A stretch of DNA of 64,000 bases from Octopus vulgaris (taxonomy: Eukaryota). Of this stretch, positions 1,178 to 61,100 are shown one piece after another. The DNA is taken from positions 104,470,001 through 104,534,000 of the forward strand of contig OX597815.1 of NCBI GenBank assembly GCA_951406725.2. Reading direction: 5' to 3'. The notes below the pieces were generated by a model, which saw only the letters and a program-made list of their open reading frames with translations, searched no databases and was not told where the DNA came from. The position numbers and the translations under genes are program-made. Each line of letters starts with the position of its first letter. Within the stretch, counting starts at the first letter, position 1.

Positions 1178-2403
1178 TTGGATCATTCCAAAAATAATGC
1201 TGCTTTTTCAGTTGCATGAAGGGAGACAGGAGGAGAATAGGATAAACTACCTGCATCAACTTGCTATAAAAACAAGTTGTAATTTAACCTTGTGCTTATT
1301 CTTAATGAAAGTTTTGAAGTGTGCAGTTTGATTTTAACAGTTATATTTTCAAAGCTACAATGAAAGTGATAAAGGAGCATATTCAGTATATTTTGCATTA
1401 TGAGTTCAATAAAGGCAACAATGCAATGGAATGTGCAAAGAATATTAAGGCAGTATATGGGAATTGGACAATAAGCATAAGCCAGTATCAACAGTGGTTT
1501 CAGAAATTCCAAGTCGAAACTACAGCCTAGAAGATGAGCCTCATCCTGGAAGATCAGTAGAGCTTGATGAGGACATCCTGCAAATGCTGGTGGAACAAAA
1601 TCCCATCATAACTGTCAAGGAACTAGCAGAGAAATTTGGATTTGGTCATTCAACCATTCATCAGCACCTGTGTGCCATTAGAAAAGTCAGCAAATTGGGT
1701 CAATGAGTTCCTCACTTTCTGAGTCTAATCACACACAGGGAATGAATGTGTGCCTTCTTTGCTGTCATGTCTCACAAATGAGTTCTCTATAAAAGACAAT
1801 GGATAGGGTAAGGAGAAATGCTGGCACCCCAGACTAAAGAAGGTCTTCACCCACATAAGGTATTGTTATCTGTTTGGTGGGATATAAAAGGTTTAGTCCA
1901 CTTTGAATTTTTAAAACCCAAACCAAATGATAACAAAGGAGATCTACTGTGAATGGCTTGAGCAGCTTATATCAGCGCTAGAAGAAAAACAGCCATCTTT
2001 GGTTTCAAGACGAAAGGTATTCTTCCATCAGAATAACACTTAGCCACATACAGAGAGGATGACATTCCAAAGCCTGGAACATTTTGAATGGACAACGATG
2101 CCCCACCCACCATATTTGTTGGACATTGCCCCATCTGATTATCATTTATTCCACAGTCTTCAAAATCATTTGAATAGGAAAAATATGAATTCTGCAGATG
2201 AGGTAGAACAGTACTGGAGAAGTATTTTTCATTGTGGACAAGTGAATTTTGGAAGAGAAGCCTTGCAAGTCTACTAGATAGATGGAAGAGCATTGTAGAA
2301 AATGAAGGAAAGTATATTTTAGATTAAAAAAAGAACTTTGTTTATCTTAATTTTGAAAAATAAAAGAAGTATAAAAAACTACATTATTTATGGGAAGACC
2401 CAA
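1178..2403 (+). mobile_element. Near full-length decayed mariner (DD34D) DNA transposon
   Basis: Imperfect TIRs ttggatcattccaaaaataatg (1178) and cattatttatgggaagacccaa (ends 2403), TA on both sides (1176-77, 2404-05); about 1.23 kb. Confidence 0.9.
1360..2327 (+). pseudogene. Mariner transposase pseudogene (frameshifts, stops, internal deletion)
   Basis: MKVIKEHIQYILHYEF N-terminal HTH, LEDEPHPGRS, Q*VPH (WVPH motif), PHPPYLLDIAPSDYHLF (YSPDLAPSDYHLF motif), C-terminal WKSIVENEGKY. Confidence 0.9.
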
Positions 2404-2429: not shown

Positions 2430-4330
2430 TGGATGATGGAGTGTGTAATCAAACAATGAAGACATCTTTTGAGCAAGACATGTCAAAAGGAATCAATCCA
2501 GTAATGATGATGAAATCTAAAGTACAAATTTAATGGATTCAATAGAGACAAAAGTGCTCACATAGCTTTTGTTTATGTAAGTCCACCACTCTCAACAGCC
2601 GTGTTTTACAGTTATACCAACTGAATGAACTGAACAAGTGCTATGCAAATGCAGATTTTTGAGGCTATGTGGATTTTTGAGCTAAACTAAAGCTATCTTT
2701 GAAGATGACAGAATGCACTATTGCGTATTGGATGCAAATTTCTATCTCAAGTTTACTTTGGCCATGGCAGTGAAGGTACTTGATCAATAATTTCCAGAAT
2801 TTTGCTAATGAGTATGTCAAAGACCCTTTCAGAGAACAAGATACAGTTGATTTTTTTCTAGGTCATGTTAATTTTCCAGCCAACATGGGACACACACACA
2901 GCAACATCCATATAGTTTTTAGGAATTACGGCACAATAATCAGCATAATTGAAGTCAGTGATGGTGAAATCTCATTCCACAGTATCACTTGAGAAATCCA
3001 TTGAGCATGTTTTGTGATCCAGTCAAAGGCATAGTGGAAGGGTATTAGAGATGGAACATAGTCCTAGCTGGAAAGCTGAATAAAGTTTGAAGAACTTGGA
3101 TCCCTCTTCGTAATAGCAAATATTTTATCTGTGATCTAGATATTCCAGAAAACATTGTAATCAGCAGAATCAAAAACTGCTGTGAAGTCCACATAACAAG
3201 TAATGGTTCAATGGTAGTCATTATGACATTGTCCAACAACCCTTCAAAGAGTGAAAAATTTGATATGTACAGCCTTGGCTCTGCTGAAAACTACACTGAT
3301 TTGGTCATGTGCACCAAATCAAGGTTATGTTGAAATCTTTCTAGTAGAATAATCCTGAATGACATGACCACAATGTCTATCAAATTATGCCTTAGTAATT
3401 TCTACGTTAACACTTATTACTCTTCTTGAAGCAAAGGAGGAAAACAACACTAACCTTGTGGAAGAGATTCCATGTCATAGAATCAAATCACAGTGCAGCT
3501 GTAGAGCCAAGACATTTAAGCAATTTTTGAAGATTTCAACGGTTAAACCCTCTTCAGACATTGTTCTTCAGATTTTAGATAGCTTTATGCACCTCCTTGA
3601 TGGTTGGTGCATCTGGATTGCATGCACGGAGAATGATATCTTTAGAGTACATGCACAGCTGATTAGTAGAGGAATCATGGTTGAATAGGTTCACAAAATG
3701 GTCATACCAATGACTGTGATGATCAGCTTTTAATATAACTGCTTTAAACATCAAGGAGTATTGGTCTTGTTGCTTTCCATGATTTTAAAAAAAAATCTGA
3801 TGCAGTTTTTGTGAGTCCTAAGAGTAATATTATGTTCCATATCTTGAGTGGCAGCACATTAGAATTCATTGTGATCAGCATAGACAGAACAGATTATTTG
3901 CCTCCATAAGAGTTGATTGTGGCTCCACTACTTTATAACAAATTCTGTTACACAGCCTGATATCCAGTTTTTTTAACTACATCTGGTATAATTTAATTCT
4001 TGAGTTACTACTTCTTACAAGTGATGCTAGAAATTGTTCCATTATTTTTCAGCAGTAATTTAGTTTGTGCAGTGTATCCAAGCTACTGAAGAGGTTTTGC
4101 AATTCAAGTTGAAAGCATGTGGTCTGAATTACTATATTTTAGCTTCACAGTATCATATTTTGGTGACCTTTTACATGGTTTCTAACTTCAGAAGACATAT
4201 AATTTTGCTACCTGGGCTCTTTCATACTATGGTAAGATCAGCTGTTACATACACCATTGGCCCAGCAAGAATGAAGGAAACCTTCAATTTGAATGGTTGT
4301 AAAACCATTGTTCAAGTAATATATATTATG
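2430..4330 (-). mobile_element. Old, heavily decayed RTE-like LINE (APE endonuclease end plus RT)
   Basis: Minus-strand fragments *KSPG..SDH (endonuclease C-terminus, ~4230-4110), WYDHFVNLFN..PTIKEVHKAI*NLKNN..GLTVEIFK (~3710-3520), ITDFNYADY (YADD-like, ~2960-2935). Confidence 0.65.
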
Positions 4331-5221: not shown

Positions 5222-5440
5222 TAAGGTTTCAAATTTTGCTGCAAGGACAGCCATTTTTGGGGGAAGGGATGTGTCGATTAAATTGATCCCAGTGTTCAAC
5301 TGGTACTTAATTTATCAACCCTGAAAGGATAAAAGGCAAAGTCAACCTTGGTGGAATTTGAACTCAGAATATAGTGATGAGCAAAATACCACTAAGCATT
5401 TAGCCCGGCATGCTAATGAGTCCGCCGGCTCACCGCCTTA
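5222..5440 (-). mobile_element. tRNA-derived SINE, family A
   Basis: Minus strand ggcggtgagc head, B-box gagttcaaattcc, central gactttgcctt..atcctttc.gggttgataaattaagtaccag; four other copies in the window. Confidence 0.85.
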
Positions 5441-5494: not shown

Positions 5495-6250
5495 TTACTC
5501 AGTACTTTTGTAGAGTACCAAATTTATTATTCTTAAACAAGAATAGTGTTGACAGCGACTTTGAAGTTTTGGCTAACACACACACACACATTTCTTAAAC
5601 AAAAAAATGTTGTTGATAGTGACTTTGATGTTTTGGTCAGCTAAGTCACTGAAAGACTGTGACGCATTACAGTTAGTCTTGCTTTTATATTGTCTCTGTT
5701 AAGTTAAAAATCATCTTTGGGTATGTTTGTTTGAGTGGGATGGTAATTAGATTTTTATGGTAAGTTGTTATGGAAATATATTTTGAAAAAATTTTAATTG
5801 ATTAAATTTGGTGTTATGTTATTGTCTAGTAGTTATCCATGCATGTAGAACTTTGTAAACAAACCTGCAGGTATTTCTCTTCTGTTTAGTAGGCACAAAG
5901 TGCGATGGTATTTTTGTCAGTTTTGGTATAATGGGAGTCTAGTACTTAAGCCTTTAGTAATTGGGTGTGTCAACTTTTATTTCAAAAGGATGTAAGTAGG
6001 TAGCTGGTCCTGTCTTTACTAGTTGATATTTAAGGTTATTAGTTAGGTATGTTAAGGCTTTGTTGGTATATAGAAATTATTTCTCTAGTGCTTTGATGTT
6101 TACAAAAATATTTGAGTAAAGGTTGTATGTTTATTGTGTTTCTCTCAAGGTGTTCATTATTTTATAAGCAACTTAATTAGTATATAGGGATTTTAAACTT
6201 CCTGTATTGTGGAGGTAGAGTTTGATTAGTGTTTGTTTATAAAATTTCTG
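5495..6250 (-). mobile_element. Decayed Penelope-like element 3' part (GIY-YIG C-terminus plus tail)
   Basis: Minus strand has xTLCLL (CxLCLxEK-like) near 5900; tail 5500-5640 is partly tandem-duplicated and homologous to 37860-37945; eroded GAAA-cg-TC-like HHR half near 5625-5640. Confidence 0.4.
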
Positions 6251-7854: not shown

Positions 7855-8392
7855 ATATAAAATTTAATAAGGGTAGAAATTGATATTAATCAATTAAAAC
7901 CAGTGGCCTAGCATATTAAAAAAATTCGAAGATTAAAATATTTTTACATACAAAATTTAAAGGACTGACCACTAAAAGTAATGGTTAACATGCTAGATAT
8001 AGACGTCAAATCACTATTTTCCACAAAGAATATGTTCTCAAATAAAAATCCAGCATGAACCAAAGTATTAAAAATAAGCAAGACAAATGAAAATATACGA
8101 AATAAAAATGATTACCTATGTACCGATCAGTTTCGATTCTTATTATCCTCGCATGTGGATACCCGCAATCTCCTCAGCATAGTTTGTCATATAGAAATAC
8201 AATTTGCAAACTGATTGGTACATAGGTAATCATTTTTATTTCGTATATTTTCATTTGTCTTGCTTATTTTTAATACTTTGGTTCGTGCTGGATTTTTATT
8301 TGAGAACATATTCTTTGTGGAAAATAGCGATTTGACGTCTATATCTAGCATGTTGACCGTTCACTTTTAGTGGTCAGTCCTTTAAATTTTGT

Positions 8393-9430: not shown

Positions 9431-9554
9431 CAGACACAGTCACATGAACATATACATACATAATATATATAACAAAATAATATATAAATATATGCATATA
9501 TACATACATATACCTACATACCTACATCTATATGTATATATACATGCATATATG

Positions 9555-9990
9555 GGTACAGGACACCAAAAAAAAAAAAAAAACGTTGAACACAATGAGA
9601 AACGAAAACATTGAAAAGAAAAACATGGAAATTGACTTTTTTTTCAAACAATGAAAAAACAGAGTACAAGACATACAACACAAGGAATATTCCCTTTCTT
9701 CAGTTGTCCCTGTTTCAGCTACTCCGCGTTTCGAAGGTAAGGACAAGACGCGACTTCGTTGAAACAATCCTTCCCGCAAAGCAAATTAAATAAAATTTGG
9801 GATTTTTTGCGGAGGGGTAAAAGTGGTAACAAGAACAGGACAGTGAGAACAAAACAAGACCGTAAAATCAATACGAATAAAAACAGTAAAAGACAGGACA
9901 AGGAGAATAACACAGTAAAAACAAACGTTGAGGGTTGTTAAGTCGAGACAATGAAAAAATTATTTTGAACGCATTGAGAAGACGGCGACG
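9555..9990 (-). mobile_element. PLE-like 3' end carrying a rearranged hammerhead
   Basis: Homologous to 60625-60890 (cctgtt.ttgttacca..aaattttatt; 3' end cctgt.c.catatatgcat); minus-strand RRRLL..KIIF..TLN resembles a GIY-YIG ORF end. Confidence 0.7.
9692..9752 (-). ncRNA. Non-circularly permuted hammerhead ribozyme candidate
   Basis: cgcgTC-ttgtcc..cctt(c)-GAAA-cgcg..ggacaa-CTGAAGA-aagg; all three stems pair. Confidence 0.75.
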
Positions 9991-9991
9991 G

Positions 9992-10140
9992 GCTTCTTTC
10001 AGTTTCCGTCTACCAAATTCACTCACAAAGCTTTGGTCGACCCGAGGCTATAGTAGAAGACACTTGCCCAATGTGTCAAGCAGTGGGACTGAACTCTGGT
10101 AGGGAAGCAAGCTTCTTACCACACAGCCACACTTGCGCCT
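9992..10140 (-). mobile_element. tRNA-derived CORE-like SINE, family B
   Basis: Minus strand aggcgcaagtgtggctgtgtggt (A box), gttcagtccc (B box), ttgggcaagtgtcttctactatagcc core. Confidence 0.85.
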
Positions 10141-18645: not shown

Positions 18646-18827
18646 TGATAGATCATTAGCTACTTCACACATTTTTTTCTCTCCTTGTTTTTTTCTGTGT
18701 ATCTTTCTGTAGAAGAGCATAGGCTCGAAACGTAAAAGACTTTTTCTATTTCTGAGCGCTATACTAATACATTTGTTTGTTTGTACACCACCTGCCTTCG
18801 TCTTTTGTTTATTTTCGTAAATTTTCC

Positions 18828-18830: not shown

Positions 18831-18874
<44 letters not shown>

Positions 18875-18876
<2 letters not shown>

Positions 18877-19230
18877 GGGACAAGAACACGAAACATCCAG
18901 ACAACTAGGTGATACAAAAAGGGACAACAAAACATCCAGATGGATGATACAAAAAAACAAGGATGGGTCATTCAAAGCTTTCTATCCTCAGTCAAGAACC
19001 AGATCATCCTTGCAATTTTGGCTGATTAATCTTGAGATTGCTCCAATCTGGCCTGCCCCAAGGAAAGACTAAGTTAAGAGCTTTATATTCCTTGGAAGAA
19101 AGCATCGAATATATACAAAAACAAGGACGGAAAAAAAGACAATGTTAGACAAATATAAATACAATAAGAATAATAATAACAGGACATAACAACAGGTGTC
19201 TTTCGACTGGGGATGAATTGAATTCATCCC
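18875..19230 (-). mobile_element. PLE-like 3' end carrying a rearranged hammerhead (third stem set)
   Basis: 3' terminus gtgttcttgtccca-(ta)n resembles the termini at 9555 and 60890. Confidence 0.65.
18981..19041 (-). ncRNA. Non-circularly permuted hammerhead candidate (GAAA decayed to AAAA)
   Basis: gcaaTC-tcaaga..gcc-AAAA-ttgc..tcttga-CTGAGGA; stems I and III perfect. Confidence 0.65.
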
Positions 19231-60143: not shown

Positions 60144-60502
60144 TGTGAAGGTGGCTCATCTGAAAAAGCAATAGGTATGAATAAAAATTGATAGTGTAGA
60201 GAGATCATTTTATTTGTGGCATCTACCCTCTCCTCCCCGATCCATTTTGTGAAGTGGTTAGTGATTGGAAGGACATCATTAATACAGTAGATTAGGTAAA
60301 ATAAAGGAGTGATCTTCCAACAGATTTCTAACCTCATATCTATAATTTTCTGAGCAACTCTCTTAATGGTTATATCTTAAATGCCTGATTTCTATCCAAC
60401 TTTCTACACATGCACCTTTCTCTCTGTTACGAAAACAAAAGAGTTGAATGCATAAACAACGAGAGAAACAAATGGAAAACAGAACAAGTAACATAATGAA
60501 CG

Positions 60503-60565
60503 ATCCTTCATCAGTTGTCAGTTGTCCATCTACTCCTCATTTCCAGTATTGAATGACAATATGAG
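60503..60565 (-). ncRNA. Non-circularly permuted hammerhead candidate (left arm)
   Basis: ctcaTA-ttgtca..GAAA-tgag..tgacaa-CTGATGA; stems I and III perfect, stem II decayed. Confidence 0.65.
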
Positions 60566-60715
60566 TCTTTGAAGGGCAATGGCTCCCATAAACCAAAATA
60601 AAATAAAATACAGTGGAGGATGTATATCTCCTTTGACCTGTTTTTGTTACCAACTTTGACCTTCTGCAAATCCTAAATTTTATTTTGGTTTACGGGAGCA
60701 ACTGCCCTTCGAAGA

Positions 60716-60778
60716 CTCATATTGTTGTTCCATGCTCGAAATGAGGAATAGATGGGCAACTGACAACTGATGAAGGGT
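60716..60778 (+). ncRNA. Non-circularly permuted hammerhead candidate (right arm)
   Basis: ctcaTA-ttgttg..gctc-GAAA-tgag..tgacaa-CTGATGA-a-gggt. Confidence 0.7.
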
Positions 60779-60938
60779 CGTTCCTTACGTTACTTGTCCT
60801 GTTTTCCATTTGTTTCTCTCATTGTTTATGTATTCAACTCTTTTGTTTGCGTATTTCATGTTGTTTGCGGTTTGTGACGCCCTGTTCTCATATATGCATA
60901 TATATATATATGTGTGTATGTGTGTACATATACATATT

Positions 60939-61100
60939 TATTGGGTGGGTGCATAATTATTGTGGCTTTTTTTCAACAAATTTTATTCAACAAAAGCAAT
61001 AACAACATGTAACAAAAACATCTTTAAATGATTATTCTGGAACATATTCACCATCTACTTCAATTACTGCTTCCCATTTGCTTGGCAGATGGTCAGACCA
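60939..61100 (-). mobile_element. Mariner 3' end (TIR plus last codons)
   Basis: Minus strand DHLPSKWEAVIEVDGEYVPE*; TIR tattgggtgggtgcataattattg. Confidence 0.8.

Follow-up and report, generated by a model that had tools for sequence, protein, structure and literature searches.

The window, a 64,000-nt stretch of the Octopus vulgaris genome (contig OX597815.1, positions 104,470,001 to 104,534,000), contains four copies of three repeat families, named here F1, F2 and F3, each of which carries hammerhead core elements in a non-circularly permuted order. A 5'-truncated copy of F1, 91% identical to the family consensus by blastn, occupies 9450..9986 (-) and has its hammerhead at 9692..9817 (-), a 5'-truncated copy of F2 lies at 18831..19226 (-) with a motif of the same layout at 18977..19103 (-), and F3 is present as an inverted pair, with a 5'-truncated right arm at 60621..60941 (+), motif at 60657..60780 (+), and a left arm at 60428..60604 (-), motif at 60501-60594. 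Cuts are predicted at 9747/9746 in F1, 19036/19035 in F2 and 60721/60722 in the right arm of F3. An earlier note on this DNA had placed four motifs at these sites in an order it called A-C-B, equivalent to S-G-C, and both the sequence and a descriptor scan bear this out; its stems I and III, the triplets GUC, AUC and AUA and the cut site at 9747/9746 are correct as written. The four copies are members of three genome-wide repeat families, of which F1 and F3 are homologous, and therefore they are not four independent observations.

The A-C-B descriptor check that had been suggested was run within the window for all six block orders, with stem II either optional (relaxed) or required (strict). 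Relaxed S-G-C matches were found for three copies, at 9697-9752(-), 18985-19041(-) and 60508-60565(-), and a strict match for one, at 60717-60776(+), against 0.07 SGC matches per window relaxed and none strict in 30 block-wise dinucleotide shuffles. When no insertion after A9 was allowed the scan gave no matches, and it was this that first exposed a problem with stem II. The stem II originally drawn for F1 (ccuuc/aagg) opens with an A.C mismatch at the place where a G10.1-C11.1 pair is needed, and in F2 no such stem forms 3' of the core. The strand ahead of GAAA is instead perfectly complementary to one lying upstream of the cleavage block, as GAAGG/CCUUC in F1, GGCUGG/UCAGCC in F2 and GAGCA/UGCUC in F3.

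The motif drawn in the earlier note is a part of an object about twice as long, the upstream partner of stem II and three further helices, P4, P5 and P6, having been missed. The strands run in the order P4a-P5 hairpin-IIa-P6a-IIIa-UH-Ia-IIb-GAAA-IIIb-P6b-Ib-CUGANGA-P4b. The strand after A9 pairs still further upstream to form P4, P4 runs directly into the P5 hairpin and P5 directly into G10.1, and in P6 the nucleotides that follow stem II pair with those that precede stem I. As P4 and P5 lie between A9 and G10.1 the core would be set in a five-way junction (I, P4, P5, II and III), and not in a three-way junction with an A9-10.1 link of 0-2 nt. P4, P5, P6 and III form a nested layer and stems I and II are pseudoknots. 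An intermolecular fold, which the earlier note gave as the alternative to a pseudoknot, is not required, stem III being 4-6 bp long, extended by P6 and non-palindromic in most families, although that of F1 is palindromic (CGCG). The consensi of F1, F2 and F3 have the identical six helices with junction gaps of 0-2 nt. Another helix, drawn by eye to join the strand that follows stem III with sequence on the 3' side of P4, varied in register among families and was replaced by P6.

All six helices can be followed in the F1 copy of the window, on the minus strand throughout. The 5' strand of P4 (CCCCU, 9813..9817) pairs with 9692-9696 directly after A9, and the P5 hairpin (9774..9812), which has a 7-bp stem and is present in the minimum free energy structure, lies directly between P4 and G10.1, abutting both. 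G10.1 is 9773, the first base of the stem II 5' strand GAAGG (9769..9773), the upstream partner of 9733-9737, and it is followed by the 5' strand of P6 (9760..9767), which pairs with 9710-9717. Block S, with the stem III 5' strand, the GUC triplet and the stem I 5' strand, lies at 9741..9752, block G, with the stem II 3' strand, GAAA and the stem III 3' strand, at 9725..9737, and the stem I 3' strand, the CUGAAGA core (9703-9697) and the P4 3' strand at 9692..9709.

The window copies differ in how well they are preserved. The F1 motif is near intact, its helices being kept bar one private mismatch at 9695 in P4, where the base departs from nearly all other copies in public contigs. In F2 the order and position at 18981 are as previously described, but the GAAA reported there is in fact AAAA, with G12 changed to A at 19019; because of this change and a broken pair in stem II the copy is probably inactive. 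The right-arm F3 motif has an intact core and stems I-III, with substitutions that weaken P5, whilst that of the left arm is truncated upstream, lacks the P4 5' strand, carries C11.1>G and is probably inactive as well. ViennaRNA recovers P4 (3 bp), P5, P6 and III in the F1 window copy; with pseudoknots outside the model, the three window copies folded were no more stable than shuffles (z of -0.6 to -1.0), and values of -2.5 and -3.1 were obtained for the metagenome loci L180 and L182.

Support for the structure comes from 16 representatives of this split form, seven from the octopus genome and nine from metagenome contigs, which were chosen by requiring stems I-III including the upstream stem II and which, with three groups of them related, amount to fewer than 16 independent cases. 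The core (C3 U4 G5 A6 N7 G8 A9, G12 A13 A14, A15.1-U16.1 and H17) is found in the three consensi and in 16/16 representatives, as the scan required. Since selection was on stems I-III, the G-C pair and P4, P5 and P6 are independent tests. G10.1-C11.1 opens the upstream stem II in all 16 even though the scan did not require G-C, whilst other positions of I, II, III and P4 show two to six pair types. With P5 chosen blind, P4 reaches a score of at least 4 in 12/16 representatives compared with 13/226 swapped tails, the four that fail including the octopus Naiad element described below; this test is the tightened replacement of a looser swap control of P4 and P5 together, which was uninformative (16/16 against 122/240). 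P6 reaches a score of at least 5 in 13/16, compared with 20/240 swaps. In a MAFFT alignment of 12 copies of F1, F3 and a related family, F5, the positions of P4, P5 and upstream stem II are 95.5% paired whereas slid registers give 39-52%, figures that come from related sequences and so are not a probability, and eight of their 14 pairs have changed on both sides. MAFFT shifts the S block by two columns between F1 and F3, and stems I and III were therefore counted on anchored strands. Comparative analysis in this way demonstrates the six helices and the spacing of their junctions, and shows that both are conserved between unrelated sequences, and the structural selection and Penelope-like 3' ends claimed in the earlier note are upheld in the form of non-circular hammerhead cores with covarying helices. 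Standard models do miss the motif, as had been foreseen: at the Rfam gathering score no hammerhead appears among the 150 of 236 window matches listed, nor in 20 other loci.

F1-F3 are, judged from their sequence features, non-autonomous Penelope-like repeats. A first look at the 2.8 Gb genome gave 4877 candidates for F1, 5261 for F2 and 2896 for F3, of which 40 were scored and 30 retrieved per family. The genome has 29 exact matches to a 28-nt S-G stretch of F1 (control 0). F1 and F3, with units of ~0.9 kb, are 71% alike. Copies are 5'-truncated to varying extent and end in a TA-rich tract, a 5'-end tail of 30-40 nt follows 6/30 F1 and 2/30 F3 copies (L168 and L169 have a full F1 unit with this tail and a partial tandem), an inverted partner lies within 1.5 kb of 5/30 F2 and 7/30 F3 copies, the window example being 60428-60941, and a direct second copy lies within 1.5 kb in 2/30 F1, 1/30 F2 and 1/30 F3 loci. 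These traits, namely 5' truncation, partial tandems, inverted copies, a tail and microsatellite targets, are among the hallmarks named for Penelope-like elements (PLEs) in the text of PMC8557442. The core and stems I-III are kept by only 8/30 F1, 6/30 F2 and 11/30 F3 copies, and by 8/20 octopus Naiad copies, and genomic copies therefore appear to be decaying. In none of 102 family loci and 15 extended loci was a reverse transcriptase (RT) seen attached to F1-F3, nor an RT/GIY-YIG ORF of their own. The one adjacent ORF, in L025, belongs to a decayed Neptune element into which F1 had inserted, and an assignment of F1 and F3 to the Hydra clade, made on two short motifs and an antisense ORF-like reading, was dropped because no RT match supports the antisense readings.

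Some variation within these families may be recorded here. F5 has the six-helix motif at L077 ~1925-2060(+) and L177 ~5900-6250(+), and F2 subfamilies with compensatory stems occur in L172 and L084. To the eye the F1/F3 tail, for example at the start of the L169 unit, has an AG/GUAAGU that resembles a 5' splice site, with a long pyrimidine tract after it, which recalls the introns in PLE pseudo-LTRs.

Whilst the earlier note held that ordinary PLEs carry type I hammerheads, and this is so for Neptune-type PLEs of the octopus genome, which have sense type I hammerheads in L152 and L163, the clade that is relevant to the split form is Naiad. The 13 Neptune-type loci have type I hammerheads or none, never the split form. 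A young Neptune-type family with many intact 781-aa ORFs was seen in L129, L134, L150, L151 and many other places in the genome; its 3' region contains repeated promoter-like boxes, with no convincing hammerhead within ~4 kb downstream. Naiad PLEs are reported to be without canonical hammerheads, some cores fitting no descriptor (Craig et al. 2021, PMC8557442), and Naiad_Ovul is marked 'HHR_half_core' in that work. Read by eye in its supplement, the Naiad_Ovul and Naiad_Obim consensi show the split layout at a distance of ~100 nt from the 3' end, P4 being weak. The octopus Naiad motif has 273 exact pattern matches in the genome (control 0). In L144 the split motif stands downstream of a broken Naiad RT on one strand, a decayed motif was found in one more of seven octopus Naiad RT loci, and 3/20 further RT loci pass the scan. 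F1-F3 share with Naiad the ribozyme layout and (TA)n targets only: no sequence match of F1-F3 to the octopus Naiad 3' UTR was found, and 0/27 octopus Naiad RT loci end in F1-F3.

The split form is also found beside Naiad-type RTs in other sequence collections. Alignment of 22 of 40 Naiad-type proteins led to 96 RT loci, 80 in metagenomes and 16 in metagenome-assembled genomes (MAGs), of which 77 have at least 150 nt of 3' flank and 19 less. The split layout is present in sense and outside the ORF in 11/96, representing nine families, in ten cases 3' of the ORF and in one 5'; the single antisense match among the 96 was weak and inside an ORF. The layout appeared in 1/1540 shuffled 3' regions and in none of 80 phage controls (from 122 phage loci preselected by core words), 11 of these controls holding ordinary type II hammerheads. 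Three further RT loci, L209, L229 and L261, have a plain type CSG hammerhead. L251 (~2990-3120(+)) and L268 (~745-880 and 5300-5435(+), in both repeats of the element) have CSG in which two closed hairpins separate A9 from G10.1, an arrangement seen in 0/1540 shuffles, and this junction is that of the split form with P4 capped instead of open. Some permuted hammerhead is present in 16/96 RT loci and no hammerhead form in 80/96; a relaxed-core scan of the remaining loci gave only five matches, all implausible.

The ORFs next to the motif are consistent with this assignment. Pfam places GIY-YIG at the N-terminus in 6/6 ORFs tested and RT further back in 3/6, mostly below curated cut-offs, and the products of L144, L180, L181 and L188 have N-terminal GIY-YIG, CxC, DKA and C-terminal RT (again with most Pfam scores below curated cut-offs). 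These four group with octopus Naiad in a quick RT tree, in which the octopus branch is long. In the same tree the split form occurs in three groups, that of the octopus Naiad, the sister of that group and a distant one; CSG and CSG-plus-insert occur elsewhere in the tree, and several large groups have no hammerhead. No Naiad-like RT was found in viral contigs. The Naiad-like elements L258-L273 come from bacterial genome records and are most likely eukaryotic sequence contaminating the MAGs, as Craig et al. remark (PMC8557442). A C-terminal ubiquitin-hydrolase (PF00443) extension was noticed on Naiad-type ORFs P0026, P0027, P0029, P0030, P0032, P0033 and P0037-P0039; L188/L258, L189, L197, L204 and L206 belong to this extension group, and some loci have long open 3' extensions.

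For a view across species, 49 of the 54 Naiad consensi in PMC8557442 were read by eye with no scanner, in short passages from their 3' ends and together with motif hits. The split form is legible in Beroe forskalii (with a stem I of only 2 bp), in Acropora millepora and A. nasuta, with mismatches in A. acuminata, and in a passage assigned by position to Pomphorhynchus laevis, and a Euprymna Naiad has the core, I and III with stem II not clear. Type CSG can be read in three Nippostrongylus families, Haemonchus, Heligmosomoides, Ascaris and one Pristionchus passage. Amongst the rest of the 49 consensi no hammerhead was seen in the 3'-end stretch viewed. At the hammerhead site the Naiad 3' ends of oyster, Tegillarca, Pinctada and Saccoglossus have, to the eye, another conserved and apparently structured motif, and those of mussel and clam another, twister-like one (PMC8557442 consensi); the bivalve and Saccoglossus motifs are candidates for further ribozymes. 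Rfam found nothing in the 11 hammerhead-less RT loci among 20 scanned.

The earlier note named rearranged hammerheads in Xenopus PLE-associated repeats as a precedent and knew of none from cephalopods. That precedent was not found in the literature, Cervera 2014 having only minimal hammerhead motifs there, and S-G-C has already been published as type SGC (HRIMA-1 and variants), with five examples validated in vitro (Eckert et al. 2023, PMC10085705). According to the main text of that paper both types, SGC and CSG, cleave in vitro and depend on a stem I-II helix, and the RNAs were found in no genome of a known organism save for one weak GCS candidate. The present motifs share with type SGC the block order and every core nucleotide, as well as a helix that connects stems I and II on their other sides (here P6) and a short linker between the stem I 5' and stem II 3' strands, 1-5 nt here and typically 3 there. 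They differ in that the stem II strand of type SGC follows directly after CUGAnGA whereas here it lies upstream, with two helices at A9/G10.1, and in that type SGC came from metatranscriptomes and the present motifs are in animal genomic retroelements. The published scheme of six permutations assumes that CUGAnGA is inseparable from its adjacent stem strands, and the descriptors encode this (PMC10085705). By its layout the motif of F1-F3 and Naiad is to be placed in the SGC/CSG cyclic class, with a block C that is not contiguous.

Type CSG, described from two metagenome sequences to which the relevant text of PMC10085705 assigns no host element, has the identical cyclic order, and L209, L229 and L261 are plain examples; the window form is opened in P4, CSG between stem III and P6. 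Naiad CSG of nematodes and metagenomes may be what hosts those two orphan sequences. With the type I hammerheads in the pseudo-LTRs of canonical PLEs and in non-LTR retrozymes (PMC4209133, PMC6765202, bioRxiv 10.64898/2026.07.22.740005) the motifs share sense orientation near the element 3' end, tandem and inverted copies and non-autonomous derivatives, whereas those hammerheads have CGS order, a three-way junction and a short palindromic stem III that needs dimers. They are unlike non-LTR retrozymes in not being type I and in having few tandem units (4/90 loci). In comparison with the Naiad clade of PMC8557442 the motif-adjacent ORFs have the same N-terminal GIY-YIG, CxC, DKA and C-terminal RT, and the (TA)n targets are the same; F1-F3 are ORF-less, and the full permuted structure is not recognised in the text of that paper. 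In the literature we found no account of the split layout or of a link to Naiad, and none that places non-circular hammerheads in the genomes of eukaryotes, and no such layout appears in passages of PMC3088659, PMC6765202, PMC6155905, PMC10162972, PMC12269668 and bioRxiv 10.64898/2026.07.22.740005. Hammerheads 'containing additional helices' are mentioned in PMC13725137, citing PMC4509812, so that there may be a partial precedent.

Taking these observations together, we consider it probable that the motif is a cis-acting, self-cleaving hammerhead of the S-G-C class that is opened in the core between A9 and G10.1 and acts as the 3'-end ribozyme of Naiad-type PLEs. P4 and P5 would stack end to end, with the nick in the stack holding A9 beside G10.1, and with A9 so held the usual active site would form and cut 3' of NUH; in hammerhead chemistry G12 is the base and G8 the acid. 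Single-nucleotide insertions occur naturally at the A9/10.1 link. Published descriptors also permit a one-nucleotide insertion after A9 (PMC10085705), and both suggest that this link tolerates additions. P6 would stand in for the contact between loop I and loop II. The predicted cut lies 170-192 nt ahead of the TA tract, ~170-190 nt from the element 3' end, and read-through or tandem transcripts would be cut to free a unit-length RNA with 5'-OH and 2',3'-cyclic phosphate ends, which may be circularised or serve as an RT template. Release of element RNA by cutting has been proposed for PLE hammerheads (PMC4209133); in the one PLE tested the hammerhead was dispensable for insertion in vitro (PMC11167929). 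F1-F3 would be ORF-less derivatives copied in trans by a PLE RT, most likely of Naiad type, and most of their genomic copies have since decayed.

It would seem rather unlikely that the motif is a conserved, hammerhead-derived RNA that does not cleave autonomously, being either dependent on protein or a 3'-end recognition signal for the RT or RNP, yet there is precedent for this, as one PLE hammerhead did not cleave without protein, with no reads ending at its site (PMC11167929), slow cleavage is common among PLE hammerheads (PMC4209133), and the non-autonomous F1-F3 retain the structure as they would a cis signal. Every representative, however, keeps the catalytic nucleotides and NUH whilst its stems diverge, which would be superfluous for a binding signal, and sister Naiad lineages exchange the split form for plain CSG hammerheads. 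Another reading is that the split form is itself a plain type-SGC hammerhead, with stem II 3' of CUGANGA after one extra nucleotide and the upstream helices as alternative or inhibitory pairings that switch the ribozyme off. The published descriptors allow such an insertion at the same place (PMC10085705), and F1, F3 and F5 can form a downstream stem II of 4-6 bp with G10.1-C11.1, which in the alignment is 4 bp, G.U-rich and 94.7% paired (again among related sequences), with one of its four pairs changed on both sides. We nevertheless regard this account as distinctly unlikely, given that the downstream stem II scores at least 4 in only 1/16 representatives and has 0-1 bp in 10/16, all F2 types included, that in each of the four octopus families tested the duplex energy is more favourable for the upstream partner, and that L251 and L268, which have the P4/P5 insert, offer no alternative partner.

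Cleavage solely between two copies, as a dimer or in trans, is the rule for minimal type I hammerheads of PLEs (PMC6765202), and both the palindromic stem III of F1 and the tandem occurrence of PLE copies would be in keeping with it; as stem III is elsewhere mostly non-palindromic, reaches 4-6 bp with P6 extending it, and direct second copies are so few in F1-F3 (the 4/90 loci above), this is very improbable. That a chance resemblance has been multiplied by repeat copy number might be argued from the window, where four copies reduce to three families with two of them homologous, but the sense layout outside the ORF in nine unrelated families, set against one match in 1540 shuffles and none in 80 phage controls, leaves this a negligible prospect, and the RT-locus scan, the shuffles, the L251/L268 insert and the blind P4 control refute it.

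If the motif is a self-cleaving, core-opened hammerhead as proposed, then a five-way-junction form exists at thousands of copies per genome, the catalogue of six hammerhead permutations is incomplete and the A9/G10.1 link is a place where entire helical domains are plugged in naturally. No small ribozyme has been studied more than the hammerhead, whose wirings were deemed enumerated, as six block orders in which block C cannot be divided; a covarying form from nature that breaks the block C rule would surprise specialists and would offer a new insertion site for ribozyme engineering. Non-circular permutations would at the same time move from anonymous metatranscriptome contigs to animal genomes and high copy number. 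On balance we favour the wider view that in a large part of the Naiads, across many animal phyla, the native 3'-end ribozyme is a non-circular hammerhead, CSG in nematodes and an active five-way form in octopus, corals, a ctenophore and an acanthocephalan. Split and CSG forms at Naiad 3' ends would explain why Naiads 'lack' hammerheads, and so give a testable answer to why elements that are dominant in many invertebrate genomes seemed to be without them and to have only 'half cores'; a supposedly ribozyme-less PLE clade would then always end in some self-cleaving RNA.

Finally, the window contains some other repeats near the copies described above. At 8116-8182(-), within an inverted repeat at 8032-8309, there is a type I (CGS) hammerhead whose stems measure 5, 4 and 10 bp and which probably comes from another PLE family. 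Beside the F2 copy, at ~18705-18735(+), a degenerate minimal type I-like motif can be made out by eye, with an altered core, a 4-bp stem II and GAAA. The truncated 5' end of F1 is abutted by a different short repeat at ~9985-10100(-), which we take to resemble a common octopus SINE tail.
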